A stretch of 18,835 nucleotides of DNA, taken from assembly GCA_030637655.1 (NCBI GenBank), contig DAOWGI010000070.1, positions 1 to 18,835 on the forward strand, in the 5' to 3' direction. The position numbers and the translations under genes were made by a program. Position 1 is the stretch's first letter. The number at the start of each line of letters is the position of its first letter. A model generated the notes under the pieces. The model was not told the DNA's origin and did no database searches. It was given only the letters and a program-made list of their open reading frames with translations. This DNA is from a candidate division FCPU426 bacterium. GTDB taxonomy: Bacteria > Oederibacteriota > JAAXVQ01 > JAUVAV01. Shown here one piece after another: positions 232 through 18,411 of this stretch.

Positions 232-3200
232 TTACGCAGCTTGCGCCGGGGTCTTGTGCAAAATAATTGGCAGCAGCTTGATGCGCTGCTTATCAATTCG
301 GATGATGCCCTGCGGATACTTCTGCTGCAACAGCCAGAGCAGGTTTTGCCGCTCTATCACCACCGCCGGCAAGACTATGGATATCTTCTTCTGTTCCACC
401 GTAATCACGACTTTTACGGAATGTCCCGAATCCACAGTGCCTAATAATTTTAAAAGGCTGTGGTCCAATTGCTGATCATCTGACTCCAACAAAGCCTTTA
501 ATAGCAAGCGACTTAATCCACCTACTCCTAAAGTGGACTTTCCCATTGCCAAATGCCCCAGCGCCTGCTGCCAGCGTTTTCCAGTAGGCGTATTAGAAAC
601 AAAGAGCGGTCCCAGCCGGGGATCTGCTGACACCTGCTGCTGCAAGTGCTCGGCAAGACGGAAATGGCCACGGAGTTTTTGGTAATAACGCTCCCCGGCA
701 AAGGCCGCAATGTGATCAAACAGCAGCCCGGACCAACCCAGCGAGTCGCCTCGGCTCATCTTTTCCGCCAAGCTCGAACTCAAGCCTGTGGGCAGATACA
801 GCGCGAACGCGTCTGTTGGAGAATCTGCTTTCTCTCCTTTTTCCACCCGCTGCCAGCACTCTCCCCGCACCAAGCGCACAATATACTCTAACCCATTCAT
901 ATTCTCCGGCAGGGTCCTGACCTCAATGCACCGGCCCTCGCGGTTGGCCCGCAATAAATCAGAGAGCGCAAAGCGGTTAGGCGGCAATTGGCTGATGATT
1001 CTTTGGCCGAGTTTATTTCCCAGAGCCTCAGGGTGTTGCTCCAAGTCCAGGTTCTTGGGGCCTGGCAACAACTGTTGGCGCAACCCCTGGACTACGGACA
1101 AAACAAAAATCAAGCCAAGCCGCAAATTCGGTAATCGCTTTAACAGCCAGGAACGGCCGGCTAAAACATATTCATTGGGAGTTTTTTGAATTTTGGACAA
1201 ATCAATATCCACCAAGGAAGAATAAGCAGTGGAGATTGTTTTTTTGTGATCACCTGTCAGATTTCTTGCCATTCGGTCGAATTCCCAAAAATCATAGCTC
1301 ACGTGAATGCCGGTTGCCAACAAACCCAACACAATCACCCAACCCCAGAACCAGCCATTGAGCGCCAGGAATAGTGAAAAAGCAAAATAGGGTGCAAAGG
1401 CGAGTATTTGTTTACTCCAACCCGCCAGCAGCGGTATGGCGCCGCGCGCCAAGCCTGCGCGCCATTTATAATATTGATGTACCAGGGCAAAGGCCGCTAA
1501 AAAGACTGCAAACCAGACATGCAGACCCATTAACCCCAGCACCGCGCCCAAAATAAGCAACACCGGAATTTCCCATTTCAATCCCCGCTTCCCGACCGCC
1601 ACTGCGCCGGTTATGTCGCCGGGGTGACGGATGAGGTGGAGAAAGAAAGCGATGGAGTTGGGATTCATTGCTTGTACTTGGTCTCTTATTCGTAGGACCT
1701 CATAAATCTGATCTCCAGGAAAATGCACATTCTCGGTTGCCTTGGGTTTTTTCCTTCTGATTATTTTACTAATAGTGTCTGAATCAGTCTCTCCTTGGTG
1801 AATCTGCTGAATATAATTCCAGTAAACAATATCATTAAGAGTACCCTCGCTAATATCAGATTGGCTAATAAACATGACTTTCGCAAACTGATTAAAAAAT
1901 GGCATGCCAATGGCATTGTCACTTCGGCAGGATCCCATCCCTATTAAAACCGTTTCGTCCTTCCAATCCTCTGGAACAATTCCGCTAAAAACTTGATTGA
2001 GATTGGATTCATAGCCATGACCACGATAGAAGACCATGCGCGCACCATACTTTTTCATCAATTGCGGCAAAGGTGTTTTCATGCGCCCCATCTCATCGAG
2101 CATATCCGGCGCTAAATGGACCAAAACAATCTGTTGTTCCGGCTTGGTCCGGTAGGTTAATAGAGTTATATTTTTCTCTTGCTTCGTGATTATATAACCC
2201 CCTATCCCATAGCTGTTTCCCGTATATCTCTTTATTGTCTCTTTATAAAAAGCCCGGTGATCAGGACTGTAGATCATAAGACTAGGGCCTTGCACAAGGC
2301 CTTCCGGTAAATCTCCGCTTTCTTTTGTCTTGCGCGCTATTTCACTGATATCCACCCCTTCCAGCAATGGCATGATCCTGTTATGAACACTCTCGGGAAT
2401 ATTTCCACGCGCGAGATTCACACCCAAAAGCAGACGCAGCGTTGTTTTGATCTCTTCCGACTTGATAACTTCATGAGCGCGGACCATTCCGTCTGCTAGA
2501 TTTTCTTTTAGTTGAATAGCCATAGTTTCATCAGCACTTAATGACCTGAGAAATTGTGTGTCTGGGGATTCGTAGTTCACATCTTGTTCGCCCGTCTGCC
2601 GGCTGGTTGATTTCTCCCCAAGCATCTCATGCAAAAGACGGACAGCTGCTACATATTTGTCATCTTTAATACTGTCAACGCGCTTAAATAAAATAGACGC
2701 CATATTTCTGAAAAATACAGGATATTCCGCCAGCGCATGTTTTACTTCATCAAATGCTTGCAGCACTCGCAAAAATTCAATCGTTAATTTATAATCAAAA
2801 TCAAGTCGTCCTAAATATTCCAGAAGCACGCGCCCCTGAACTCGGGCTCTTTTCCGAAGTTCCGGCAAAAGCAGATTGAAGGTACGTGAATTAATTTGAT
2901 TCTGTCCCCTGGCCAACAACACATAGAGCGCGATATCAGGTAATTGTTCGATCTCTTTTTGCTGAATATCATATCGAATTAAATGCATAATAGGATTAGC
3001 ATCTATTTCAAAGAGCACGTTAGGTATTTGTTGTGCATAAGAATAAAATTCCAGAACTTCCGGAACAGAATCAACCAAAGACGACCATATCGCGATATTT
3101 TTTGAGCTTTTTTCCGCCTGCGGCATACGGCTTACATTCCGGCGCATTTGTTCCAGCGCACTTTGCTTAATGATTTTTCCACTTTCCGGGTCTGACTCGG

Positions 3201-6200
3201 ATATATCAATGAATTGGTTTTGCGGACTTACACCATAAGGATATTCACTCAAAATTCTGCCCGCAACTGCATCTGCATTTTGTGCCATGGCTTTAATCAT
3301 TTGTGGGTGTGGTCCTATGGCTTTACAAAGTCTTAAGGTTCCTCCGGCGAAGTTGACCAAACGATGATCCAACTGGGTCACGATACGAACCGCTTGATTG
3401 TTATCAGCCTGTCCGGCTTGACGGATTAATCGCACCATGACCTTTCTACCCTGCTCATTAATACCATATTCTTCTCTTACAATGGGACTCCATAATCGAA
3501 AATGTCGATTTAATATTCCAACCACTTCAACACCTGCATCCAGGGCTTCCCGGACTTCTGTTTCCGCATGTACAATCTCAGACTCAGGAACATTTAATTC
3601 CAGTTTGTCTTGACCAGGCGTTTGCAAAGCCCGCTCTAAAGCCTGAAAATAAACCGGGTTTAATTCACTCCAAGATTTCAAGGCCTTTTTCCATTGTGTT
3701 CCCCAATTCTCGGAATCCTGTTGATAGGCTTTTTTTAATTCTATGCCTATGCTTTGATCTTTGACCGCTTGCTTTACTATTTCAAATGCTCGCTGACGAA
3801 TCTCCGGCTTCAAATCCGGTCCCAGGAGCATAATTTCTCTTAAAACTTCACGCAAAAAAGATTCCCCGCGTCTTTCAAACTCAAAATCCAAATGCTGCAA
3901 AGCGTACTGTGAATAACTTTTCGCCAGGCGGACCAATAGCCGGGCTTGTCTGTTTGCAGGACTATGCCCCTCGGCCCGTAATAAAATCGTCCACCGTTTT
4001 TCCTGCGCTAAGATTTTTACCATCTCATCGTAGATGTCTTTTTCAGGCGTATCCCACCATGACAAGCTCAGACTGCCGCCTAAAGCCAAACGTACTTTCG
4101 GGTCTGTTTTTTCCAGAATATCCAGCAATCGTTCGATATCAAACTGCGCGGCCTTTCTGATAAATGCAATTAGTAATTGCTTTTGCTTCGCAGTTAATAT
4201 TCCATTTTCATTAAGCCATTGTCTGCCTTGATTATTTGTCACGTTTGCAGCCAGGTCTATGGATATGGCTGACTCTTGTTGCAATAGTTCTTCTACTTGT
4301 ACCGTATTTGCAGCAACGCCGCTCATTCCAGGTGGTTCGGCCAGAATTGGAGTCCCAAAAACCAAACCCCAAGATAACACCAATGCCAAAATAGCGCCTT
4401 TAATATCCCCTGGCTTCATTTCAAATAATATCCGCGGCGATTGAATTACTAACCATAGCAACTTAGCAATCTGCGAGCCAATTATCCAGACCAGAACCAG
4501 CGTTGAAAACATGCCGGCGACAACCCCAAAGAGACCTACGATTGAGACAGACCACAGTACATGTTTACTTTTGTTCACAAGCCAGGCATTCTGGACGGCA
4601 TTAAGTTCGAATATTTCTCCCAAGCGCCAGAGAGTATAATCAACTAAAGCTTGATACCGTTTCGGCACTTCCCTTATTATCAAAGCGGAAATATTCACCA
4701 ACCCATGCCCCAGCAACCCAAAAGCCAGCATGACCGGGAAGGATACAAAAGGCATGAATATCAGGGCAATATTGACAACGCTGAAAATCACAGCAATGAT
4801 TTTATTGGTCCGGGATGCTTTTTGTTTGAAATGAAGGTGAGAAAAAGATACCCACACCGGGCCCAGGAAGACTTTTAAAGCTAAATCAATATCACCAAAC
4901 ATGTACAGTGCCATACCTGCAAATGCCAAACCGGGCACCCAGGCATACCACTGCTTCAGGGAAACACAGAATTCCCACCACCAGGCGACTAATGTGCTGT
5001 AATGCTTTTCCCAAAATTTACCTTTCCCTGCCCAGTGCTTGAACTCATCGGGCATGATGCCGCCGGTTGAAGCTTCTTGCCGAAAGTCTTGCTCAAGACT
5101 TTCCAGCAACCACTTGCCCAACATGACATAGGCATAGGCAATTTCACTCATGCTTAATGCTCTGCCGGTCCTTAAATTGTGCTCAACTATTCGGCGCCTC
5201 TTGTTAGGATTGTTCAGTAATTCAATTATTCTTTGAGCGCCGACCTTAAAATCAATTTCACCTATATCGGTATTAGGCACTTCAACAATTCTTAGCCCTT
5301 CGTCTTGTTGAATAGACCGACTGGAACTACCTCGGCGCCAGATTTGAATTGCCGGCCCGGCCGTACGATGGCAAGTGCCATCCGGCTCCATTTTCGTCTT
5401 ATTTTTATCTTCCGCGGGTCGTTTCTCATTCAATACCTCATGATGAATACCCGCTGTTTTAAAATCAATCAGGTTTTCCTGCCATTTGGATAGTTCCATA
5501 TCTTCCGGACCGAAAAGCTCCGGCCAAATAATCACGCGGCGCTTATCATCCAAATTGCCTGCATAGTCTTTATTGCTTTTATCCAACAGCCACCTTCTAA
5601 AAGACGCTTCATCACTAAACTCCTTTTGGCTATACGCACTTCGCATCTCATTTTTAGATAAAAATAAGTAATTATCCGTATCTTGCTGATATTTTTTCAA
5701 ATCAATGAAGTTATCAAAGCCGCCGGCTATGAAGCCAATAACATTTTTCCCCGGATTATTTACATAAACGGCATTTACCAGTTTTTTTACATCTTCAAAT
5801 TTTCTAATACTTCCCCAGTCAGTTATTGCTCCCACTACACTGACTGCCTCTGATCGCAATCGCTGTTCATCAATCAAATCACCTTTGCTAATAAAACCAT
5901 GAGGGATATATACTACCGGTTTACCCGACATCATCTCCTGATAACGCTTGATCCATTCTTGATCATTGATGAGCATGACCACAGCATTAACTTGATCCAG
6001 GACTTGCCGCACTTTTTCCTTGCCATAGCGCAAATATAATTCTTCCGGACGATGAATAATTAAAATGACTGGTTGGGAATCTTTGCTTTTTTCTATTATC
6101 GGCAATTGGCCGGCCAACCACTGCTCTTCTTCTGCTGATCCTTGCCATTGAATAATCGTCACCCCCTGATCTGACTTTTTATCTACCTTGCCGTCTTTAC

Positions 6201-9200
6201 TTCCGATGATTTTTGTAAAAGTTATCAGAGGTTTATCATGTCGATTTGAACTGCCCTGCCAACGTTTATTTATTTCGCCAATACCATGTATTAAGACATT
6301 TGTGTATCCTCTTAGCGAAGGAGGGGCATGTATGGCCAAGGCTGGTAAAAATGGCGCTTCTTTTTGATTTAATAAAGCATCAAGTCTTCGATGCAGGGCT
6401 CTAGGTTTCAATTGTTGTTGCCAGTTATGGGGCCCAAGTTCACTTTTGCCCCTCTTTGAACGGCTTCTATATTCTTCAGTTGGGGTGCCGCCGGGTCGAG
6501 TTTTCATATCGTCTTTCTTTTTAGCTGTCCGGCGAATAAAACCTTCAAATCCAAAAAGGGCATGAATAAAATATACGGGGTTTAATTCAAAAGTTATCCT
6601 GGTCAAAAGCTCAGGCTTCCGCTCATGGATAAATCGCAAAAACATCAAATTAGGGATCAAGGTCTTATTCCCAAAAAGGGCGCTGCGATAGAAAATTATA
6701 TTAAATAATCTTGAAAAGTACGGATATCGCTTTTCATTGGAAAAATGGATCCACCCAACCATATCCTGCATTGAGGTAAAAGCCTGTTTTAGAATTTCTA
6801 AAACCTCAAAGCGGATCGCATCGGTTTTTCCAGGTAGAGTCGTCTGATGAAATTGACGGTACAGCTCCGGGTATCCATTACTTATCCAATGCCAGGGATC
6901 GAATACTATTTGAATAGGTATATGCCGATCCGGGTGGAATTTTGACCAGCTCTCACGCCATGTGCGTATGCGGGCAACATATCTTTCCAGTCCCGCCACA
7001 CCTTTACATGATTTTGCCAGGTGCAGAGGTTCAAATAAGAGGATGATGTTGTTATCAAAAGCCCGTTCAGCCATAGCCATCTGGATAGGTTCAAAATTAT
7101 CAGAATCGAACAGCAGGTTTTCCCGGTGCGCAAAATCCTCCAGAATTCGATCAATATCTTCTATATGAACGATTAGCTTAATTTTATCAGCCGGTTCAAA
7201 ATACCGGTTTAGGGTTTTATAAAACAAGAAGGTATGACGTGGCGACATGTCCATATGAAAGCTTTTCACATAGAGCCGGCCTTTTCTCAAGTAGCGAAGG
7301 GCGGTTTTGTATTGAAAAGGATCAAGATAAAGTTCATTTGCCGGCAGACCCATAAATTTCGAGGCAAAAAGAGAATAAAAAAGTATGAGCCCCGGAATAA
7401 ACGCATAAATAAATATATGAATAATTGGGCTTCTGATTCTATGTAAAAGCCCGGTTAGCGCCAAGCTGGAGATGGCTCCATTTTGAAAAACGGTTTGCAG
7501 GATTTCACGATCGGTTGCAGTCAGCTTATGCTGCTCATCTGTAGCTAAATTCAGGGATTGCATGTCAGGGTATGTTTGAATTTTGTCTGAAACATTTTTG
7601 GGCTTTTTGAGAACTTTGATGACTGGCACCGTCTCCGCAGCATTTGATAGTTCAGTTAATTTATTTCTAATGAGTTTCCAAATAGGATATAAACTAATGA
7701 CTTGCAATGGCCGCAGGATATACCGAAGCGGGGTGGCAAAAAATCGAATGACTGACCTCAGGATTGGATGACGAGCAGATTGTCTGGCAAGACGCTCAAG
7801 AACAATCGCCGAGCCTTCGTGGGCCAGGGTCACGGGCAGCATTATAGCGCGCAGAAGATTGAACCAGCGGCTCTGGGAGTCGGCCACCCAGCCGTGGTTG
7901 AGATATACCGTGAACTTTCCGGTTTTAGGATCGCGATACGTCAAGGCGCTGTTCCAGGGCGCCAGCCATTTTTGCCACCATTTCTGCCACCTAGTGCGTT
8001 TTTTACTTTTCGCCTCATTCTGCTTATCCGTGATCTTCCAATACATGGCTTCCATCTCAGCGGTTGGTAAACACACCACCTTGGCAGCATTCCTGAAATA
8101 TTGCTCCGCGCGTGATTGCCATTTGGTTTTAGGCGCATCATCTATCGGGCGGACACCAGGATTTGTTACATCATCCGGGCGGCCACGGGGGGCCGCCCCT
8201 ACATTTTGTATTACCCAACCGGCCAATCCGTGCAGGGCGTACACGCCGACCATGGCCCAGGTAAAAATACTGAGCCAGACGCTGCTGTCAACCAAGGTGG
8301 CATAGACTGCAATTCCGATTGCGCCAAGAATGGCGAAACTATTGTGGAGCAGGTTGAAGGGAGCTTTGGTGCCTGTCACGTGATCTTTCTCAGAGAATGC
8401 TTGTATTACCTTTTGTGCTTGCATAAATGTTTCAACATCACCGGCAAGAATATCTCCTTTTTCCAGGGTCCAATGCATTGGATCACGTGCTGAGACAGTG
8501 AATGATTCGCCATCTGTAATAGGATTGAATATTTTTTTATTATAATCTTGCTTATGCTCTGAATTAAATTTATTGATATAGTCAACAACTGTTTTCAATT
8601 CGTCGCCGGGAATTGTTCCTCCCAGCCAAGCTAAATTCATGGCAAAGAATTGTTCGTTTTTACCGGATTGCTGTTTAATCCCGTGTTTTTTGGCTATATC
8701 AGCAACTTTTACCAAAGCGTGTTTATCCCCTTTAACCGGGACATGATATTTTAGATAGCACACCAAATCGCCGGCAGGATTGATGCCTAATCCCGTAACT
8801 TCCAATTTCATAGCTTTCAAATCAGGATCAGCCCCACACTCTGTTATAATATTTTGGTAAATTTCAGGGATATCTTCTATTGGAAAATCTTGGTAATTGG
8901 TTCCCAGTAAAATAGAAAAATGAGGCACAGCCCGGATAATCCCTAGAGAGGTTTTCGGCATATTTTCAAAAAATTCATTTAGCATTTCTACCAGTTCTTG
9001 AGGAGTTAAATTTAAGAGTGTGGCATTGGGTACAAATGGGTATAATCCTCTTTCAGGAGAAACCACCTCACGAGGATCTTCACTTTTATCAAATTCCCGG
9101 GCTGACCATGATTTCTTATTCTCTATATAATATTGAATACGCCATTTATTTAAACTTGCTATTACCTGATTATTCATAGGTGGGCCAATGGCATAATATC

Positions 9201-11628
9201 GGCTGATATCTTTCCAAAAACCGGGTTGAATAATTACCCATTGATCTCTTTCATCCAAAGCTGTCTGCCATTCCGCAATATCCTGCTTCCCTTCAAGCGC
9301 TTTTGGGGGGAGTATTTCATCTGTTATTTTGGCAAATGATTCAGGCGCATTCAGCACAGCATGGAAAATTTTCATCATAGCCTGATGGCTGGATAACTTG
9401 GCTTCAGTGCCTGGCACCTTTTGTAGCATCGGCAGCACGCGGAAAAATGTTTCTTCCAGCAGGGGTCTCCAGCGTTTTGGAATTCTTGACAAGGTTTGTT
9501 TTAAATAGCCCTTTTTGAAAAAACCTCTCTCCCATTGCGGAAGTTCCAAGGCTGCGGGGGCCAGACCCGTTTGCTTAGCTGCTTCCTGCGCAATATTTTC
9601 ATTGAGAATCCGGGTCCATTTTTGCTTTATTTTACTTGCAAACATAAGCATAGCAGGCATTATTTTAAGCATCCTACCCTGCCACCCAAAAAAATCCGAC
9701 AACTTCGCCCCATCTGGTAATAAGACCAGGACCTGCCGCTGTTGAGATTTTTTAAGTAATATCTCCAAGGCTTGGGCACCCTGTTTCGGATCTCCATAAT
9801 AAAGATAATCAACCGGATTCTTGCTCCCTAGCCGAATGCGTTGCAATTCATGATTGCTTGGTCCGGGCGTTTGCTTGATATCCAAAAGGGCCAAAGTTGT
9901 TACCTTGGTTCCACTCTCGTCTCTTACCGGAATCATTAGCAAAGGTAGCTCTTTGCCCTTTAATTCCTGCACCATAGCCTGATTTTCTTTTATGAATATA
10001 TCCCAATCAACAGTAGTTTCTCCATTGGCCAAATATTTTTTCAGCAATGCTAAATAAGCGTCCGGTATCTCCGGCAAAGGCACTTTTTGTATGTTGGTCA
10101 AATTCACAACGGTTGCGTTTTTTAGTAATACATCCTTCATCCGCCGGGCAATCCGCTTTTTTCCTCTCAATTGAGCGGGATTTATAATATCCGTTGGTTT
10201 AATATTCGGCAGATCTGCGCATTCGGTCAGCACTGCCATAATATCCTGGTTCCTGGCCAGTAGCTTTTCTAACGGCAGCTTACGGTTTTGCAGCAGAGAA
10301 AAATAGGGATTCACAATATCCTGACGCGTCAACCGCGGTTTGATTGAGACATAACTGATATTCCGGGACTCAAGTTCGTGCAGCACTTTTTCCGTATGAA
10401 AACCTCCGCTAATCATAACAGCCAGATTTTCATCAAACCGCTCCATCTTAGCAGCCAAATTCTCGACAAAATGTTGGCTGCGCTCATCAGCCAGGCGGTA
10501 AAAGGTTTCGACCTGATCTAAATATTGATCCAAGCTTGCAAATTCCCAACTATCAAACTCAAATTTTGTTTCACCGGCCGGGCTATGCTGAGCTGCAAAC
10601 TCTAAAAATACCCGCGTTTGGTATTGCCCGCGATTTTCCCGGAAGTCCTGTAACTCCTCAGGCTTGACGGAAATGCTCAGCAGACGTTCAATCACATCCA
10701 CGCGATGTAAGAGAATATCCAATTCCTGTTGGCGCTCATCGGAATAAAGCCGGCTGCGAATCTCAATGTCCAGGCGCTCGAATTCAAAAAAAAGACTATC
10801 CGCATCAATTTTTTCGGAGAAGATATTTTGCTTGAAGGCAAGGAAGCGGGTTAACTGAATATAAGAGGTTAACGGAATATGCAACTTTTTAGCCATGGTG
10901 TAAAGATGCCTGGCATAAACCAGCAGTTCGCTGCGGCCCAACCGATAGTCGCTGCATTTATCATCGTACTTTAATAACCGCGGATTATAGATGGAAGGCT
11001 TTAATTCGTCCAGAAGTTCGCGCAGGTCGTAGCTCAAACCCTGTGATTCACTATTTAAAAAAGAACGTACCTGCCTGGCACTGGCGTGATACAGGTCCGG
11101 GGTCTCGATCCCTTCCAAACGGACCGGATGCTCACCGGTCGCTGAGTAATATTCCGCGCCGCTCAATTTACCCTGTTGGACCAGATAATCACCTACATCC
11201 TCGCGAATCTCCGGGATTGGAAATGTTCTAAGCTTGGAGGTATTTACCGTATAAAACGCGCCTTCTTCTCCTACCAAGCCCAACTCGTGTTCCTGGGCCA
11301 GATAGTGGATTATCCGGGCAATGTTCATCTGCACTTCATGGTTGCAGTGCAGATCCTGAACATGCACGATCATCCTGTTTTGGCCCTGAAAACCCTTTTG
11401 AATTTTTCCGAATTTTTCCGGCAGCTTTAGATTTTTTCCCAGGAGTTGTACTTGGATCATATAAGGATTAGAAGACAAGTAATTGGCGCTGTCAAAAGCC
11501 CAGGTTATAATTGGGAGCACAAAAGAGAATGCCGCGCCAAGCGCAATAATCCTGGTCCAAATGAATAATTTTGGATGTCTCCAGACAGACAAGACACAAA
11601 ATTTCTTGCTAGAGGTATGCTGTTCCAT
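232..11628 (-). CDS. Giant (~3,798 aa) multidomain membrane-associated protein
   Basis: Uninterrupted 11.4-kb ORF. ATG at 11628 preferred over TTG at 11664 (AAAGG/GGA upstream; followed by a basic/hydrophobic signal-like segment RIIALGAAFSFVLPIITWA). Several hydrophobic blocks and recognisable enzyme motifs; ends TPAQAA*. Confidence 0.95.
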   Translation of the reverse strand: MEQHTSSKKFCVLSVWRHPKLFIWTRIIALGAAFSFVLPIITWAFDSANYLSSNPYMIQVQLLGKNLKLPEKFGKIQKGFQGQNRMIVHVQDLHCNHEVQMNIARIIHYLAQEHELGLVGEEGAFYTVNTSKLRTFPIPEIREDVGDYLVQQGKLSGAEYYSATGEHPVRLEGIETPDLYHASARQVRSFLNSESQGLSYDLRELLDELKPSIYNPRLLKYDDKCSDYRLGRSELLVYARHLYTMAKKLHIPLTSYIQLTRFLAFKQNIFSEKIDADSLFFEFERLDIEIRSRLYSDERQQELDILLHRVDVIERLLSISVKPEELQDFRENRGQYQTRVFLEFAAQHSPAGETKFEFDSWEFASLDQYLDQVETFYRLADERSQHFVENLAAKMERFDENLAVMISGGFHTEKVLHELESRNISYVSIKPRLTRQDIVNPYFSLLQNRKLPLEKLLARNQDIMAVLTECADLPNIKPTDIINPAQLRGKKRIARRMKDVLLKNATVVNLTNIQKVPLPEIPDAYLALLKKYLANGETTVDWDIFIKENQAMVQELKGKELPLLMIPVRDESGTKVTTLALLDIKQTPGPSNHELQRIRLGSKNPVDYLYYGDPKQGAQALEILLKKSQQRQVLVLLPDGAKLSDFFGWQGRMLKIMPAMLMFASKIKQKWTRILNENIAQEAAKQTGLAPAALELPQWERGFFKKGYLKQTLSRIPKRWRPLLEETFFRVLPMLQKVPGTEAKLSSHQAMMKIFHAVLNAPESFAKITDEILPPKALEGKQDIAEWQTALDERDQWVIIQPGFWKDISRYYAIGPPMNNQVIASLNKWRIQYYIENKKSWSAREFDKSEDPREVVSPERGLYPFVPNATLLNLTPQELVEMLNEFFENMPKTSLGIIRAVPHFSILLGTNYQDFPIEDIPEIYQNIITECGADPDLKAMKLEVTGLGINPAGDLVCYLKYHVPVKGDKHALVKVADIAKKHGIKQQSGKNEQFFAMNLAWLGGTIPGDELKTVVDYINKFNSEHKQDYNKKIFNPITDGESFTVSARDPMHWTLEKGDILAGDVETFMQAQKVIQAFSEKDHVTGTKAPFNLLHNSFAILGAIGIAVYATLVDSSVWLSIFTWAMVGVYALHGLAGWVIQNVGAAPRGRPDDVTNPGVRPIDDAPKTKWQSRAEQYFRNAAKVVCLPTAEMEAMYWKITDKQNEAKSKKRTRWQKWWQKWLAPWNSALTYRDPKTGKFTVYLNHGWVADSQSRWFNLLRAIMLPVTLAHEGSAIVLERLARQSARHPILRSVIRFFATPLRYILRPLQVISLYPIWKLIRNKLTELSNAAETVPVIKVLKKPKNVSDKIQTYPDMQSLNLATDEQHKLTATDREILQTVFQNGAISSLALTGLLHRIRSPIIHIFIYAFIPGLILFYSLFASKFMGLPANELYLDPFQYKTALRYLRKGRLYVKSFHMDMSPRHTFLFYKTLNRYFEPADKIKLIVHIEDIDRILEDFAHRENLLFDSDNFEPIQMAMAERAFDNNIILLFEPLHLAKSCKGVAGLERYVARIRTWRESWSKFHPDRHIPIQIVFDPWHWISNGYPELYRQFHQTTLPGKTDAIRFEVLEILKQAFTSMQDMVGWIHFSNEKRYPYFSRLFNIIFYRSALFGNKTLIPNLMFLRFIHERKPELLTRITFELNPVYFIHALFGFEGFIRRTAKKKDDMKTRPGGTPTEEYRSRSKRGKSELGPHNWQQQLKPRALHRRLDALLNQKEAPFLPALAIHAPPSLRGYTNVLIHGIGEINKRWQGSSNRHDKPLITFTKIIGSKDGKVDKKSDQGVTIIQWQGSAEEEQWLAGQLPIIEKSKDSQPVILIIHRPEELYLRYGKEKVRQVLDQVNAVVMLINDQEWIKRYQEMMSGKPVVYIPHGFISKGDLIDEQRLRSEAVSVVGAITDWGSIRKFEDVKKLVNAVYVNNPGKNVIGFIAGGFDNFIDLKKYQQDTDNYLFLSKNEMRSAYSQKEFSDEASFRRWLLDKSNKDYAGNLDDKRRVIIWPELFGPEDMELSKWQENLIDFKTAGIHHEVLNEKRPAEDKNKTKMEPDGTCHRTAGPAIQIWRRGSSSRSIQQDEGLRIVEVPNTDIGEIDFKVGAQRIIELLNNPNKRRRIVEHNLRTGRALSMSEIAYAYVMLGKWLLESLEQDFRQEASTGGIMPDEFKHWAGKGKFWEKHYSTLVAWWWEFCVSLKQWYAWVPGLAFAGMALYMFGDIDLALKVFLGPVWVSFSHLHFKQKASRTNKIIAVIFSVVNIALIFMPFVSFPVMLAFGLLGHGLVNISALIIREVPKRYQALVDYTLWRLGEIFELNAVQNAWLVNKSKHVLWSVSIVGLFGVVAGMFSTLVLVWIIGSQIAKLLWLVIQSPRILFEMKPGDIKGAILALVLSWGLVFGTPILAEPPGMSGVAANTVQVEELLQQESAISIDLAANVTNNQGRQWLNENGILTAKQKQLLIAFIRKAAQFDIERLLDILEKTDPKVRLALGGSLSLSWWDTPEKDIYDEMVKILAQEKRWTILLRAEGHSPANRQARLLVRLAKSYSQYALQHLDFEFERRGESFLREVLREIMLLGPDLKPEIRQRAFEIVKQAVKDQSIGIELKKAYQQDSENWGTQWKKALKSWSELNPVYFQALERALQTPGQDKLELNVPESEIVHAETEVREALDAGVEVVGILNRHFRLWSPIVREEYGINEQGRKVMVRLIRQAGQADNNQAVRIVTQLDHRLVNFAGGTLRLCKAIGPHPQMIKAMAQNADAVAGRILSEYPYGVSPQNQFIDISESDPESGKIIKQSALEQMRRNVSRMPQAEKSSKNIAIWSSLVDSVPEVLEFYSYAQQIPNVLFEIDANPIMHLIRYDIQQKEIEQLPDIALYVLLARGQNQINSRTFNLLLPELRKRARVQGRVLLEYLGRLDFDYKLTIEFLRVLQAFDEVKHALAEYPVFFRNMASILFKRVDSIKDDKYVAAVRLLHEMLGEKSTSRQTGEQDVNYESPDTQFLRSLSADETMAIQLKENLADGMVRAHEVIKSEEIKTTLRLLLGVNLARGNIPESVHNRIMPLLEGVDISEIARKTKESGDLPEGLVQGPSLMIYSPDHRAFYKETIKRYTGNSYGIGGYIITKQEKNITLLTYRTKPEQQIVLVHLAPDMLDEMGRMKTPLPQLMKKYGARMVFYRGHGYESNLNQVFSGIVPEDWKDETVLIGMGSCRSDNAIGMPFFNQFAKVMFISQSDISEGTLNDIVYWNYIQQIHQGETDSDTISKIIRRKKPKATENVHFPGDQIYEVLRIRDQVQAMNPNSIAFFLHLIRHPGDITGAVAVGKRGLKWEIPVLLILGAVLGLMGLHVWFAVFLAAFALVHQYYKWRAGLARGAIPLLAGWSKQILAFAPYFAFSLFLALNGWFWGWVIVLGLLATGIHVSYDFWEFDRMARNLTGDHKKTISTAYSSLVDIDLSKIQKTPNEYVLAGRSWLLKRLPNLRLGLIFVLSVVQGLRQQLLPGPKNLDLEQHPEALGNKLGQRIISQLPPNRFALSDLLRANREGRCIEVRTLPENMNGLEYIVRLVRGECWQRVEKGEKADSPTDAFALYLPTGLSSSLAEKMSRGDSLGWSGLLFDHIAAFAGERYYQKLRGHFRLAEHLQQQVSADPRLGPLFVSNTPTGKRWQQALGHLAMGKSTLGVGGLSRLLLKALLESDDQQLDHSLLKLLGTVDSGHSVKVVITVEQKKISIVLPAVVIERQNLLWLLQQKYPQGIIRIDKQRIKLLPIILHKTPAQAA
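1280..1580 (-). other. Giant-protein domain: CPBP-like 4-TM module 2 (degenerate)
   Basis: KWE (~1570-1578), FALVH (1477-1491) and HVSYD (1291-1305) lie in hydrophobic helices, same layout as module 1. Confidence 0.5.
1700..2300 (-). other. Giant-protein domain: clan CD (caspase/gingipain/CHAT-like) cysteine peptidase-like
   Basis: Hydrophobic strand then RGHGY (2011-2025), and hydrophobic strand then MGSCRS (1921-1938): a His-Gly...Ser-Cys dyad arrangement. Confidence 0.55.
4680..4990 (-). other. Giant-protein domain: CPBP/CAAX-protease-like 4-TM module 1 (degenerate)
   Basis: AWWWE (~4972-4986), FSHLH (4831-4845, FxxxH) and HGLVN (4693-4707, HxxxN) lie in hydrophobic helices. Confidence 0.5.
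5110..6350 (-). other. Giant-protein domain: GT-B fold (GT4-like) glycosyltransferase-like
   Basis: ILIIH...VNAVVML...VVYIPHGF (5893-5916), then VVGAITDWGSIRKFEDVKKLVNAV and GFIAGG: the typical GT4 inter-lobe linker and start of the C-lobe. Confidence 0.55.
6560..7300 (-). other. Giant-protein domain: xylose-isomerase-like/AP endonuclease family 2 TIM barrel
   Basis: Putative metal-ligand strands in the expected order: KSFHMD, IVH, LLFEP (7028-7042), FDPWH (6889-6903), IHFSN (6736-6750), TFEL (6583-6594). Confidence 0.65.
8480..9050 (-). other. Giant-protein domain: degenerate 2H phosphoesterase (LigT-like) module
   Basis: PHFS (8914-8925) is a first HxS/T motif, followed by the strand MKLEVTGLGINP; at the second-motif position FFAMNLAW (8626-8649) lacks the His. 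Confidence 0.5.
10320..11400 (-). other. Giant-protein domain: Tiki/TraB/ChaN(EreA)-like metallohydrolase-type N-terminal domain with helical insert
   Basis: Ordered motifs HVQDLHCN (11341-11364), GEEGA (~11257-11271), ERS (~10477-10485), GGFH (10396-10407) fit the H...E...R...GxxH pattern of this fold. Confidence 0.6.
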
Positions 11629-11698
11629 TAAATCCAGCCTTTTTAGTGTTCCATAATTGTACAAGAATCATAAAACATATATAATTATCATATAAATA

Positions 11699-11948: not shown

Positions 11949-12824
11949 TTAGTTTTCAGAAATGATTTCAATAGAATATTCAGTTGACGCGCCGGATGAA
12001 ACCATGACGATTTGTGCAAAATCACTTGATTTCAACATCTCAATTCCACCTACTGCATCCCCCCCCACATACTCAATCCCATCACACTTCCGTATGCCCT
12101 GCGCTTCCATTTGCCGCACCATGGCTTGTTCCCAGGGTTTTTCAGCCATGGTTTTATTAATCTTATCAAGGTATTCCCAGGAAGATTGAAAACCATTATA
12201 GGCTTTAAGCGTGATTTCAAGTTCACTACGGCCGCGCAAGCGATAGCGCCTCTCAATACGGCGCCAGTTCTTTTTTCTTTTCAGATAGCGAACGTACTCT
12301 TGTTTTTTTTCTAAAACCGCGATTCCGGCTTGGAGATTGTACTCCGGATCATATTGAATCCGGACATAATCCCATTGTTCGTAATTCAAACAATTCGACG
12401 CCTCATTAATTTGCATTAAACCAATATCATAGGTGGTCTGAACAATTTTTCGCTTTCTTTGGGAGCGTCCGCTTCTCTTCCAGAATATCTTCTTATTGAT
12501 CCCGATCTTGGTCCGGCCGTAATTATTAAAATGCTTCCAATCACTCTCGCACCAGGCTATAGCTTTTATCAATTCCGGAGAAAATTCGGTATCCAGGGTC
12601 TCAAAGTATCGATTCATGGCAATATAATCTTGCTCCATCCAGACTTTGGCGGCAATAGTTTCCTCAGGTTTGGAAATAGGTTTGATTTTACTAATTAAGG
12701 CAGCTGCGGATATCCTTACAGACAAAGCATCAAACAGGACAAACGCAGTAATTCCTAAAATAGCCAGGACTTTAATAAAAATAATTTTGACCCACCACGG
12801 TCGTTTTTTGACTGTGTAAAACAC
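11949..12824 (-). CDS. Lytic transglycosylase (SLT domain), N-terminally membrane anchored, 291 aa
   Basis: Motifs LIKAIAWCES (catalytic Glu), DIGLMQIN, YNLQAG, AYNG; N-terminal TM helix; GTG start with strong SD GAAGGGGAG. Confidence 0.9.
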   Translation of the reverse strand: MFYTVKKRPWWVKIIFIKVLAILGITAFVLFDALSVRISAAALISKIKPISKPEETIAAKVWMEQDYIAMNRYFETLDTEFSPELIKAIAWCESDWKHFNNYGRTKIGINKKIFWKRSGRSQRKRKIVQTTYDIGLMQINEASNCLNYEQWDYVRIQYDPEYNLQAGIAVLEKKQEYVRYLKRKKNWRRIERRYRLRGRSELEITLKAYNGFQSSWEYLDKINKTMAEKPWEQAMVRQMEAQGIRKCDGIEYVGGDAVGGIEMLKSSDFAQIVMVSSGASTEYSIEIISEN

Positions 12825-13010: not shown

Positions 13011-13352
13011 CTATATTCCAAGTGTCATTTGAACTAATATAAAATTAATCAGAGATAGAATAACGCCGAACAGCAAGGCCCACCAAAAGTTTCGGACCTC
13101 AAAACCGGGTACGATGGCACTAGTCAGTATAATCAATAAGGTGTTGATAACCAAAGTAAATAAACCTAAAGTCAAAATATTGAGCGGAAGAGTCAACAAC
13201 AGCAGAATCGGCCTGAGAATGGCATTGACGAGTCCTAATACCAGAGCCGTTACCAGTGCCGCGGCCAGGCCGGTTACCTTAACTCCTGGAAGCAAATAGG
13301 CAGAGAGCATAATAGCAATCGCATAAAGCAGCCAATGAAAGAGGATGTACAT
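13011..13352 (-). CDS. Phage holin family (4-TMS, YvlD/DUF360-like) membrane protein, 113 aa
   Basis: Signature LVLGLVNAILRPIL...LTLPLNILTLGLFTLVIN...VPGF..FWWALL; start moved to ATG 13352, which follows SD GGAGGTAAGG. Confidence 0.92.
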   Translation of the reverse strand: MYILFHWLLYAIAIMLSAYLLPGVKVTGLAAALVTALVLGLVNAILRPILLLLTLPLNILTLGLFTLVINTLLIILTSAIVPGFEVRNFWWALLFGVILSLINFILVQMTLGI

Positions 13353-13509
13353 TTTCCTTACCTCCGTAAATAGAGTCCTATGGGCAATCCCCTGCACAAA
13401 ACCATACAGGACAAGCCGGGGGCCCGTTGCCTCAATTAGTAATGTGGGATTTCTGAAAAAGTCTACCTGATTATCGCAAAAAACGAGAAAATGGGCCAAC
13501 TCAAAAAGA

Positions 13510-13686
13510 GTTATCTGAGACGCGATAAATCGCGTCTCTACGGCATATTTCTATGCTTCCATGAATATGGTTTGACACAATACAATATTCGTCCACGCGG
13601 ATATGTTTGTATTTCCAGGGAATCGATCGCCAAATGGTTTTGGCATATCGCCCGCATTCATTCAAAGCCACAATTCCATTGGTTAT
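13510..13686 (-). pseudogene. Internal fragment of a REP-associated tyrosine transposase (RAYT, Y1/HUH); direct repeat of 16616-16792
   Basis: 177 bp with 9 mismatches to 16616-16792; translates NECGRYAKTIWRSIPWKYKHIRVDEYCIVSNHIHGSIEI with an intact HUH (HIH). Confidence 0.9.
13517..13541. repeat. GTAG-type REP palindrome
   Basis: GAGACGCGATAAATCGCGTCTCTAC (GTAGAGACGCGAT...ATCGCGTCTC on the minus strand); identical to 16623-16647. Confidence 0.9.
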
Positions 13687-13798
13687 GTTATCTATTTTCC
13701 TCTTTTGGGATGTGGAATTTTTGCAAGCTTTTCCTATAATTTACAGGATTTCTTGCAGTTTGGCATCTTCTTTTTTCTCATGAAATGCTTATTCTTAC

Positions 13799-16285: not shown

Positions 16286-16391
16286 GCACTCTCCCTCCTG
16301 TTTTGGATAATAGTCTATATAGGTGATACTATGAAACAAATGCCTTGAATACGCAAGGTTCAAAACCACAAATTATTGGTACGGGGGACAT

Positions 16392-16460
16392 GGGGTCTGG
16401 TCTATTTTTTTTGACATTTGGGCGTAATGAGGTAAGCGAATGTCAAGATAGACCTACCCC
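16392..16460. repeat. GGGGTC...ACCCC-type inverted repeat (second REP-like family)
   Basis: GGGGTCTGGTCTAT(T)nTTGACATT (16392-16418) pairs imperfectly with AATGTCAAGATAGACCTACCCC (16439-16460). Confidence 0.7.
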
Positions 16461-16467
16461 CTCACCT

Positions 16468-16924
16468 TCAGTAATATCGTGCCTGCCATTGAAAATCCAT
16501 TCCTCTTTGCCTTTGTCGAATTTCAAAAGATGTTCTGCCTTTATACCATCTTATAAGGTTCGCCAATGATTGGCGCAACCTTGGGATTGGCGTTCTGGGT
16601 TATACCTCCCTGTTTGTTATCTGAGACGCGATAAATCGCGTCTCTACGGCATATTTCTATGATTCCCTGAATATGATTTGGCATAATACAATATTCGTCC
16701 ACGCGGGTATGTTTGTATTTCCAGGGAATCGATCGCCAAATGGTTTCGGCCTATCGCCCGCATTCATTCAAAACCACAATTCCATTGGTTATATTGCCAA
16801 AATGCCGTTCTCTATTCACGGTACATATCGTAACAAAATACATGCCGGCATCTGAATAGTCCCAATCCCACAGGCGTGCCGTGGAAATTCCATATTTATT
16901 TTTATATAATAATTCCTTTTTCAT
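16468..16924 (-). pseudogene. RAYT (REP-associated tyrosine transposase) pseudogene
   Basis: RLWDWDYSDAGMYFVTICT...; in-frame TAG at 16751-16753; MPNHIQG (HUH changed to HIQ); frameshift near 16580 into SLANLIRWYKG...FQWQARYY*; truncated before the catalytic-Tyr helix. Confidence 0.9.
16623..16647. repeat. GTAG-type REP palindrome inside the RAYT reading frame
   Basis: GAGACGCGATAAATCGCGTCTCTAC; read in frame as RRDAIYRVS. Confidence 0.9.
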
Positions 16925-16948
16925 AATCATTTTATATTCCACACACCT

Positions 16949-16976
16949 GTAGAGACGCGATTTATCGCGTCTCTAT
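16949..16976. repeat. GTAG-type REP palindrome upstream of the RAYT
   Basis: GTAGAGACGCGATTTATCGCGTCTCTAT, in inverted orientation relative to the other two copies. Confidence 0.9.
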
Positions 16977-17168
16977 GCGTTCGTGTTTTATATATTTAGA
17001 CAGGAAAATGTGAGAATCCTTGCGGAAAAATTAAAAAAGATTAAAGAGAAAAGATAAAAACGAGAAAGCTGACGAGTTTCGAACCTGGTGCCGTATGGAA
17101 TTGGCGGCCTAATAGCTCATTCAGTCGAAGTCACAAAACATCGTTCGAATACCATCACAGTACATGCT

Positions 17169-17717
17169 TTATTTGAAGTACATGCAAAACAAATCTTTTT
17201 TCTTCTTCAACTCCTCTCCTCGCATTACAAATGATATGCCTTTATGAAACATGTAGGTTGCAGGATCAGCCACTTTTACTTTTAACCCTTCAATATCAAC
17301 CATCACATAATTTTCCAAAAGCATTTCAAAAGCATCTATTCTATTGCACGCCAAACCTCGTCCCAAAAATTTGTTCAGCGTATCATCTGACGTATAAAAA
17401 GATGTTATAAATTCAATTTTAATACTCGTATTCCCCTTTTTATTGTAAAACTCGCCCGGTATTTCTTCTTCTTCGTACAGTCTTTCATACATATATCCGC
17501 TTTTACGCAAGTCATCGTATACCGTAGTCTCAAAGTTCTTTACACCCGTTTCCTCAACCCCAAAATCAATGTCCAGCGTGCTGGGAATTTTCAATTTTTT
17601 CTTCCACAAATATTCCGAATAAATGCAAGGGCACCAGCCGCCCACAATCACCAGATCATCCAATTTTTCTTTTAATGAATTTAAGGTATCAATGAATTGT
17701 TTTTCCATTTCTTCCAT
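17169..17717 (-). CDS. AbiEii-like (GSU2403-type) nucleotidyltransferase toxin, 182 aa, possibly C-terminally truncated
   Basis: VIVGGW, STLDIDF and HKG...KKKKDL motifs of DNA-pol-beta-superfamily type IV TA toxins; ATG 1 nt after the antitoxin stop (TAG-C-ATG); ORF ends 6 aa after KDL. Confidence 0.8.
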   Translation of the reverse strand: MEEMEKQFIDTLNSLKEKLDDLVIVGGWCPCIYSEYLWKKKLKIPSTLDIDFGVEETGVKNFETTVYDDLRKSGYMYERLYEEEEIPGEFYNKKGNTSIKIEFITSFYTSDDTLNKFLGRGLACNRIDAFEMLLENYVMVDIEGLKVKVADPATYMFHKGISFVMRGEELKKKKDLFCMYFK

Positions 17718-17718
17718 G

Positions 17719-18411
17719 CTAGGCAATTTCTTCGCCCGCCTTTTGCCAATATTCTTTTAATTGTAGGGCTTCCTCAATACCCGTCGGCGGAAATCCCACA
17801 AGGTCTAAATATAACTGCAAATTTGAAACAAGGTTAAACCCTTTTACCTTTCTTGATTCTTTAAAAACAGAAGACCCATAAAAAGGTATTGCAAAACACA
17901 GGTTGCCGCCTTTTATAAGTTTCTTGAGGTCATATCTTGACACTATGTTGTTTAAAAACTGCTCTGCTTCTTCTGGTTTAATGCCAACATAAATAAAACT
18001 CCTCTCATCTTTTACGTATGGTGAAATTAATCTGCTGGCGCTGTACAGTGTTAATGAATACTCAATGTTCTTTTCCTCAAAGTATTTTTTACACTCTTTG
18101 AGAATATTTTTATCATGCGAGTAGTAATATGTATGCAAATTCTTGCTGAATGAGTAGTTATTTATCCAGTCGTTTAGTAATTCTTCCCTTTTGTTGGAAA
18201 GTACCGAATAACTACCAGGGCCTATCCTTACCCGGTTTACAAACCCTAGGCTTTCCGCCCTATTCAAAACCAGACTTGTCAGACCGAAAGAAACACCGAT
18301 TTTTTGAAAATCCGGTATTTTCCACTTGCGTTTAGGGTCCTTCAACATGGCCCGCAATATCAGTGAAGACTTGTCGCTATAAATGTTTTGTAATTGGCGT
18401 CTTTTGAGCAT
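17719..18411 (-). CDS. Type IV toxin-antitoxin AbiEi-family antitoxin / transcriptional regulator, 230 aa
   Basis: N-terminal winged-HTH-like region, ELLNDW, YSLTLYSAS, GGNL and VSNLQLYLDL motifs; translationally coupled to the NTase. Confidence 0.82.
   Translation of the reverse strand: MLKRRQLQNIYSDKSSLILRAMLKDPKRKWKIPDFQKIGVSFGLTSLVLNRAESLGFVNRVRIGPGSYSVLSNKREELLNDWINNYSFSKNLHTYYYSHDKNILKECKKYFEEKNIEYSLTLYSASRLISPYVKDERSFIYVGIKPEEAEQFLNNIVSRYDLKKLIKGGNLCFAIPFYGSSVFKESRKVKGFNLVSNLQLYLDLVGFPPTGIEEALQLKEYWQKAGEEIA

Follow-up and report, generated by a model that had tools for sequence, protein, structure and literature searches.

Introduction

Giant multi-enzyme membrane proteins have been described from Omnitrophota under names such as 'Archaeovorins' and 'multi-enzyme metabolic clusters' (West-Roberts et al., 2023, bioRxiv 10.1101/2023.11.21.568195; Nielsen and Lui, 2026, bioRxiv 10.64898/2026.06.07.730766). 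As portrayed in the main texts of these preprints, they are encoded by very long open reading frames (ORFs), contain many transmembrane (TM) helices and carry housekeeping-type domains (glycolysis, PPDK, SecA-like, glycosyltransferases). According to these reports, the N-terminal regions 'generally lack identifiable domains', and both the membrane side of the enzymes and cleavage of the chain are debated. Here, we analysed a complete contig of 18,835 bp (DAOWGI010000070.1, our C46; hereafter the window), which belongs to a 3.28-Mb genome of an FCPU426 bacterium assembled in 120 contigs and 91.6% complete. A gene on the minus strand of the window (232..11628) encodes a protein of 3,798 amino acids (aa) that resembles the Omnitrophota giants in frame length, number of helices and kind of domains, and for which membrane sidedness and cleavage are likewise a matter of debate. 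It is shorter (3.8 thousand residues versus over 10–147 thousand) and comes from an order of another phylum. The protein belongs to a family of giant mosaic membrane proteins that is very large and has no name; in this family, a common N-terminal head and a common C-terminal tail bracket variable cargo.

A giant open reading frame on the minus strand

The sole long open frame of the window lies on the minus strand (232..11664) and, counted from a TTG, comprises 3,810 codons. Translation probably starts at the ATG at 11628, yielding 3,798 codons plus a stop at 232–234 and a protein of the same length as database record P0002; the TTG at 11664 is an alternative in-frame start. Residues are numbered from the ATG throughout. 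An open frame of ~3,800 codons in DNA with a GC content of 42–50% cannot be explained by chance. An earlier note, made from the sequence of the window, had described a giant multi-motif ORF, its strand unstated. The ORF was confirmed, and all of its motifs are present in the order given: TWAFD (42), QDLHC (91), VGEEG (119), SGGFH (407) and VPHFSI (901) in the N-terminal part, LFEPL (1531), FDPWHW (1576), HFSNE (1628) and FELNP (1680) in a putative TIM-barrel module, and YIPHGF (1907), RGHGY (3202) and MGSCR (3231) in the later part. The signal peptide and the three TM blocks of the note correspond to hydrophobic blocks in a Kyte–Doolittle window analysis (residues 27–45, ~1095–1141, ~2211–2431 and ~3354–3443), which revealed one extra single helix at 1400–1428. 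Neither Pfam nor NCBIfam matched the whole protein (E ≤ 1), no Pfam family matched any of ten pieces of it (E ≤ 10), and internal repeats were not detected at E ≤ 10. Promoter and terminator scans returned sites no more frequently than in shuffled sequences.

The head and the tail define a large family

Using the head (the first ~480 residues) as query, 29 matches were found in the genome of the bacterium itself, each at the start of an open frame; the frames range from 100 to 12,216 codons, and contig ends truncate the shortest ones. Of the head-bearing ORFs, 27 reach 1,000 aa or more; together they encode 94,946 aa and account for 8.7% of the bases of the genome. Behind the head these proteins have little in common: only 31.5% of the post-head residues of the 27 giants resemble another giant ORF of the same genome, and for the protein studied here this value is only 23%. 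Apart from residues ~10–480, it shares with its paralogues residues 1431–1699, 3305–3459 and 3329–3795, with one to three partners each. Thus, a conserved N-terminal domain with exchangeable cargo, as the earlier note had proposed, is borne out by ORFs with mostly unrelated middles, and the search for paralogues sharing their ends but differing in between came out as predicted there. A full-length collinear homologue was not found in the database or in the 99 species genomes of the phylum. Stop-to-stop frames of 1,000 codons or more number 96 and occupy 19% of the genome; a head is missing from 69, at least three of which are N-terminally truncated family members. The three head-less giants with the family-type end described below begin at contig starts.

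A search of 1.84 billion cluster representatives with the head gave 7,532 matches at E ≤ 1e-3, of which 1,149 reach E ≤ 1e-30; in the 150 representatives listed, the match lies at the N-terminus. Among proteins of 2,088–6,647 aa it finds 124. Those with a named source are labelled FCPU426, Omnitrophota/Omnitrophica, Elusimicrobia/Elusimicrobiota, Endomicrobium/Endomicrobiales, Ruminimicrobiellum and Verrucomicrobiae, in agreement with the earlier suggestion that giants of this kind occur in Omnitrophota- and Elusimicrobiota-like bacteria; the family also extends beyond these two groups. Pfam domains in their cargo include enolase, triose-phosphate isomerase, PGK, PPDK, CMP kinase and SecA as well as protein kinase, AAA, methyltransferase and glycosyltransferase domains. 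Within its own phylum, the head is present in 15 of the 99 species genomes and missing from the other 84. The 15 genomes comprise all 11 of the bacterium's own family and all four of a sister family, which together form one order, and carry between 6 and at least 16 copies each.

The other constant element is a tail of ~90 residues (nt 235–504, minus strand) at the end of the C-terminal domain (residues 3458–3798, 235..1257, minus strand), a domain common to about eight relatives and modelled with a pLDDT of 70–95. The last ~90 residues align across paralogues, with a near-invariant Pro (3754 in the studied protein) and a basic patch, and end here in ...PAQAA. The tail of the studied protein could be aligned with 22 others (20 paralogues and two relatives), and with its N-terminal head and a tail closing on a dipeptide of small residues the protein shows both marks of the family. 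All 23 complete head-bearing ORFs of the genome end in [AGSM][ASV] (AA 14, SA 4, MA 2, AV 2, SS 1) and 20 of them in [AGSM]A, compared with 3.9% and 2.3%, respectively, of 1,693 background frames of at least 200 aa. The same type of end occurs in 131 of 221 database relatives and in 32 of 49 distant head proteins (19–35% identity); many relatives lacking it are probably cut by contig ends. Elsewhere in the genome (G000:C77:25268-25456, L047), a 120-codon frame is 73–76% identical to residues ~3735–3793 of the studied protein and appears to be a leftover of a closely related C-terminus.

The end of the tail bears on its possible role. With its basic patch and the Ala-Ala-COOH behind it, the tail resembles the SsrA tag and C-terminal ClpX signals, and it might therefore be a handle for degradation or extraction through which an AAA+ or tail-specific protease sets the protein level. 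ClpX, FtsH and Tsp read C-terminal ends of this kind, the tmRNA tag of the genome itself is DEPQLALAA, and the 20 [AGSM]A ends, 14 of them AA, follow on a mean of 5.5 Lys plus Arg in the last 25 residues. However, the likeness concerns two residues only, such a signal on every member would be wasteful, and the conserved Pro and a hydrophobic-D motif within ~90 residues are needless for a degron. We regard this explanation as very unlikely. A complex prediction for the head (46–470) and a 95-residue tail gave a score of 0.00 and is neutral on head–tail binding.

Cargo is exchanged between membrane joints

Comparison with the closest relatives located the breakpoints between constant and variable parts. 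The nearest one, from genome G030, is 68% identical over residues 5–735, 61% over 1084–1324 and 81% over 3322–3495 and carries other cargo: between the last two shared blocks it has ~613 aa versus ~2,000 in the studied protein, and the breakpoints are sharp. A relative of 2,361 aa in genome G023, located in an unrelated neighbourhood, has kept the head, residues 486–664 and 1090–1352 and the C-terminal domain. A frame of 881 aa in genome G024 consists of the head, the last membrane joint and the C-terminal domain alone. Since close relatives keep head, joints and tail but differ in cargo, these alignments indicate that cargo is exchanged between conserved membrane joints.

The conserved segments lie on the minus strand as follows. 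The post-head region (residues 481–735, 9424..10188) is shared with the closest relatives only (G030 59–68%, G023 37%). Membrane joint A (residues 1084–1357, 7558..8379) consists of two helices (~1095–1141) and a basic region and is 61–63% identical in G030 and 32–37% in G023 and P0124. Membrane block B (residues 2211–2431, 4336..4998) has approximately six to eight helices and is partly common to P0011. Joint C (residues 3322–3457, 1258..1665), 81% identical in G030, begins with [DNST]-P-x-S and forms four helices in the predicted model; this portable module recurs inside many giants of the order.

CPBP/Rce1 proteins (PF02517) are characterized by the motifs EExxxR, FxxxH and HxxxN/D, and joint C reads E...FxxxH...HxxxD. 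This resemblance is limited to motifs, and a relationship was rejected: PF02517 (E ≤ 10) finds only two small proteins in the genome, an hhalign comparison of the joint alignment with 10 CPBP domains gave P = 0.35, and Foldseek returned no Rce1 match.

A mosaic of this kind might also arise by faulty assembly, or the frame might be non-coding or decayed. The genome is a fragmented metagenome-assembled genome (120 contigs), and a few low-depth contigs show odd joints. Nevertheless, the frame spans 3,810 codons, its head and tail recur, conserved, in thousands of proteins, and the gene is partly covered by contigs of three further samples of one study, besides the likely source sample. Contigs from the runs X1, X2 and X3 bridge the junction at nt 1665, X1 and X3 that at 7659, X1 and X2 that at 8379, X1, X2 and X4 that at 9424, and X1 and X3 that at 10189, so that two or three runs span each of the module junctions. 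Because contigs of several samples cross them, the assembly is not chimeric at the module junctions, which answers the concern about a chimera raised in the earlier note. An artefact has next to no probability.

The head resembles the TIKI/erythromycin-esterase superfamily

Behind a basic N-terminus, a hydrophobic helix (residues 27–45, 11494..11550, minus strand) leads into a near-invariant T/S-W-A-F (42–45), of which A44 is kept in 23 of the 24 heads of the genome compared. This segment may be a Sec signal or an anchor, with a possible signal-peptidase site after A44. A basic N-terminus, one hydrophobic helix and a head of ~425 residues open every member of the family. The head proper (residues 46–470, 10219..11493, minus strand) has an alpha/beta core with a large helical insert of ~220 residues. 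Its conserved set comprises D92-x-H94-C95, E122, E175, E194, R383-S384 and G408-G409-x-H411; D92, H94, C95, E122, E175, E194, R383, G408, G409 and H411 are invariant in all 24 heads, and D92-x-H94, E122 and H411 are also invariant in an alignment of 28 heads (A1). An AF2 model calculated from this alignment (pLDDT 85.7, pTM 0.78) shows six strands, with every conserved residue directly after a strand.

The best five Foldseek matches of the model in the PDB were Bcr135 (3b55, 2rad) and EreC (6xcq, 6xcs) with probabilities of 0.75–0.96; all further matches had a probability of at most 0.28. Members of the TIKI superfamily share an alpha/beta core with a parallel beta-sheet and flanking helices, and catalytic residues are E3900, H3902, E3930 and H4030 in RRSP and H85 and E113 in Bcr135 (PMC6254334). 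D92, H94, E122 and H411 of the head mirror this set, and the spacing from His to Glu is 28 residues in all three proteins. The head therefore shows the 2His/2Glu arrangement of the superfamily (acid-x-His, Glu at +28, distal His after a strand), with Asp instead of Glu as the first acid. As the active site and, weakly, the predicted fold fit yet the Pfam models remain silent, we tentatively assign the head to the TIKI/erythromycin-esterase superfamily and to none of its named families. The Tiki/ChaN-like domain suggested by the earlier note thus agrees with both fold search and catalytic motif, although weakly.

C95, which directly follows the first catalytic His (D-L-H-C; nt 11344–11346), is invariant in all 24 heads and kept in at least 90% of the 28-row alignment. 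We know of no counterpart in Ere or TIKI enzymes.

Cargo modules of the studied protein

Five cargo modules, all on the minus strand, lie between the constant parts, and for one of them a fold is supported through homologues. The TIM-barrel module (residues 1358–1710, 6499..7557) contains the TM helix 1400–1428 and the residues E1533, D1577, H1580, N1631 and E1681. Residues 1425–1710 have 13 homologues inside other giants, sometimes in tandem, and 7 of 14 aligned members (20–50% identical to the studied copy) match PF01261, with a best E of 6.6e-6. The studied copy itself has no PF01261 match at E ≤ 10; profile searches of the PDB with the module gave weak matches to D-tagatose 3-epimerase (E 1.3). 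Xylose isomerase-like barrels carry acidic and His metal ligands at strand ends in the pattern E, D..H, H/N, E. In the alignment of the module (A2), E109, D153, W155 and H156 are invariant or kept in at least 90% of the members, as is N207 in addition; E1533, D1577, H1580 and N1631 are among these positions, and the module displays the metal-ligand pattern. Through its homologues, residues 1425–1710 can be read as a xylose-isomerase-like TIM barrel, as the earlier note had suggested. Two copies of the module (~29% identical) stand in tandem in each of two other giants, L010 (G031:C6; 4,323 codons) and L011 (G022:C6; 11,265 codons), indicating that modules also duplicate within a chain.

For residues 1775–2190 (5059..6306), an orphan module, language-model features point to a GT-B glycosyltransferase fold. 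In an Atlas language-model search, all of the best 10 named clusters were GT-B families (AGT PF11440, GT4), with a score of 0.90–0.91, 167 of 256 features and a recognition of 2792. PF00534 occurs at 28 places in the genome and at none within this module (E ≤ 10). An hhalign comparison with 16 GT4 proteins of the genome gave P = 0.018 over 42 columns (0.35–0.47 for shuffles), and no homologue was found among 8,000 scored candidates of 261–833 aa. The proposal of a GT4 domain made in the earlier note is thus favoured by the language-model search but finds no support in Pfam, PDB or profile searches, and we treat the GT-B fold as a lead only.

Two further proposals of the note are candidate folds recognized from short motifs. 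2H phosphoesterases combine a duplicated fold with two H-hydrophobic-[ST]-hydrophobic motifs. Such motifs occur at 903 and 1052 in the orphan module of residues 736–1083 (8380..9423), 149 residues apart; the whole protein contains four, compared with 1.7 expected, and motifs this short prove little. The module has no homologue in the order and no match in Pfam or the PDB. Clan CD cysteine peptidases have a caspase-like fold with His-Gly and Ala/Ser-Cys, each after a hydrophobic strand, and the orphan module of residues 2940–3321 (1666..2811) contains RGHG (3202) and GSC (3232). Its single-sequence model had a pLDDT below 50, the best Atlas score was 0.76, Pfam and the PDB gave no match, and among 1,999 giant candidates it matched only itself. 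In PDB sequence searches, none of the three orphan modules (736–1083, 1775–2190 and 2940–3321) had a hit below E 0.05. The orphan region of residues 2432–2939 (2812..4335) is mostly helical in a low-confidence model and has no homologue in 99 genomes.

A membrane-tethered set of enzymes as the probable function

We consider it probable that the protein is a membrane-resident, tethered set of enzymes with a common head and tail, whose targets would be the envelope or surface glycans. The head would be exported by Sec and act as a periplasmic hydrolase, either a protease or an esterase. The joints would thread the chain through the membrane so that modules alternate between its two faces, the TIM-barrel and GT-B-like modules (1429–2210) facing the cytoplasm, the site of sugar-phosphate and nucleotide-sugar chemistry, and the head, orphan modules and C-terminal domain facing outward. 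This placement of the sugar-related cargo follows from helix parity, with 2+1 helices before it and four in joint C, and the minimal relatives support the parity model since they put head and C-terminal domain on the same side. The protein would remain in its own membrane, and head and tail would serve a step of biogenesis, processing or turnover common to all members rather than a specific chemistry.

Several results weigh against this interpretation. The region after joint A is strongly basic and, according to the positive-inside rule, should be cytoplasmic, contrary to the parity model; membrane topology is predicted here from helices, and the two predictions conflict. The fold match of the head is weak (Foldseek E 6e-3 to 7e-2, TM-score 0.20–0.25 for Bcr135 and EreC). 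PF05139 and PF04187 match no head in the genome, the control for PF04187 being likewise silent, PF01963 finds no head in the 15 genomes of the order, no Pfam family matches the head at E ≤ 10 (including an hmmscan of 28 heads), and a PDB sequence profile search with the head returned nothing. The C-terminal domain has no fold match in the PDB (best E 0.2 together with joint C). The modules 736–1083, 1775–2190, 2432–2939 and 2940–3321 had no homologue in any search, and these four could be decaying filler rather than enzymes. The runs that hold DNA of the window all come from one study, X1 may be the source sample, and no RNA run is listed among them; the protein is predicted from the gene. Finally, one low-depth X2 contig joins position 4446 to 6521 with 12 other letters in between (depth 3.3, side 21). 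Joints of this type are often foreign and unreliable; if real, it would represent a variant without the GT-B-like module and most of block B.

A self-processing polyprotein would be compatible with the membrane-tethered set and differ from it only in the final state of the protein. In this case, the head, as a TIKI-type protease, or the GHG/SC module would cut the chain at the joints or close to them and release enzymes on both membrane faces. TIKI-family enzymes include endopeptidases (PMC6254334), and autocatalytic cleavage has been proposed for Omnitrophota giants with other protease domains (West-Roberts et al., 2023). Moreover, the active-site residues of the head are invariant in all 24 copies whatever the cargo, and head and tail co-occur across unrelated cargo. 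On the other hand, a recurrent short linker or cleavage motif between modules was not found in 27 post-head sequences (the best pattern occurred in 7 of 27), the clan CD assignment is unsupported, and a periplasmic head could not reach cytoplasmic segments. We judge the polyprotein to be unlikely. Also unlikely in our view is an undescribed plug-and-play system for polyproteins made up of head, joints and tail. The exported TIKI-fold head and the Ala-Ala tail would then be the two ends of a dedicated maturation step: by reading or trimming the tail, or by cutting at the joints, the head would activate, release or recycle the cargo. If true, several uncultured phyla would have in this family a general means of assembling a membrane-bound set of enzymes and of changing its equipment quickly, as the joints would let recombination insert any enzyme on either membrane face; in this genome, the system would take up 9% of the sequence.

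Neighbouring genes

The earlier note had inferred a polymorphic effector or surface 'toolkit'. In such a protein, the head would be a trafficking or processing domain, and the cargo would be delivered to, or displayed against, other cells. The variable middles between constant ends, copy numbers from 6 to at least 16 in 15 of 15 genomes of the order and a fast turnover of cargo fit this picture, as do TIKI-fold domains in MARTX toxins (PMC6254334) and the genes just upstream on the same strand. These are a gene for an SLT lytic transglycosylase with an N-terminal TM helix (11949–12824, minus strand) and a Phage_holin_4_2-family gene (13011–13499, minus strand), which directly precede the giant gene and recall holin/muramidase export pairs. 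Neither the other 24 head genes examined nor the G023 relative have such a pair next to them, and in the absence of conserved neighbours we do not take these genes as partners. Upstream of 25 head genes examined, no gene family recurs, save a stand-alone GT4 glycosyltransferase gene before two, and neither an immunity-like nor a secretion partner recurs beside the paralogues. The G023 relative has quite different neighbours, the window contains no secretion-system genes, the cargo of the wider family consists mostly of housekeeping-type enzymes, and at least 12 predicted membrane helices along the chain speak against release. Hence, the effector is quite unlikely in our view, and the many membrane blocks favour a protein of the cell's own membrane.

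The GT4 gene lies directly upstream of two other head giants (G000:C57:61175-61684 and G000:C43:18384-18899) and represents the only neighbour family common to any two of the 25 paralogue loci.

Further upstream, a 180-nt direct repeat with 94% identity (13510–13689 and 16616–16795) flanks Fer4 and LiaF-like genes. Contig depth rises to 61–100x over 16329–17584, compared with ~13–16x around it, and in three runs there are contigs that run out of the window or skip from ~13542 to ~16949. Repeat, depth and jumps together suggest a multi-copy element with a possible deletion variant. At 17169–18411 (minus strand), two genes with an overlap of eight bases, one for an AbiEii-like nucleotidyltransferase and one for an AbiEi-like antitoxin, make up a type IV toxin–antitoxin pair. 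At the other end of the window, positions 1–130 belong to a high-copy repeat: the first depth bin (1–628) reaches ~480–1,000x versus 13x, and many loose ends fall at 54–131. This repeat probably explains why the contig stops there.

Comparison with known systems

The earlier note regarded the class of protein as known and the architecture as perhaps undescribed. Giants of this general kind are indeed known already, while a literature search, supplements aside, yielded no paper on a shared head or tail of the giant family. A shared esterase- or TIKI-like head or an Ala-Ala tail is not mentioned in the main texts of the two Omnitrophota preprints, where the words 'esterase' and 'TraB' are absent, as is 'TIKI' from that of Nielsen and Lui. 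New findings here are that the family, in a further phylum, is restricted to one order, that its active site does not vary over 24 paralogues, how frequent the tail is, and a direct case of cargo replacement. The head to be expressed, the C-terminal dipeptide to be mutated and the defined junctions to be examined for cleavage provide testable handles.

The TIKI superfamily (EreA-C, Bcr135/136, TraB/PrgY/GumN, ChaN, Tiki1/2, RRSP) provides the best, though weak, fold matches of the head and shares with it acid-x-His, Glu at +28, the distal His and a conserved Arg. In TraB/PrgY and Tiki, the domain is extracytoplasmic and attached to membrane helices. The head differs from the superfamily in its insert of ~220 residues, in the Cys beside the first His, in its constant position as first domain of giant mosaics and in escaping Pfam detection.

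Constant ends, swappable internal enzymes and built-in processing domains are also features of MARTX and other polymorphic toxins, and some MARTX toxins have a TIKI-fold domain (PMC6254334). There, however, the TIKI domain is cargo, and the toxins have dedicated secretion systems and conserved neighbours, whereas the giant family has a TIKI-like head, no such neighbours and helices along the whole chain. The ...AA-COOH end, often after basic residues, resembles the SsrA tag and the signals for ClpX and Tsp. In contrast to the SsrA tag, the Ala-Ala of the family is specified by the gene itself, not appended by tmRNA, and is part of a conserved domain of ~90 residues. Across several phyla, thousands of proteins that otherwise have no relationship carry the same head, its hydrolase-type active site intact, at one end and the same Ala-Ala tail at the other.

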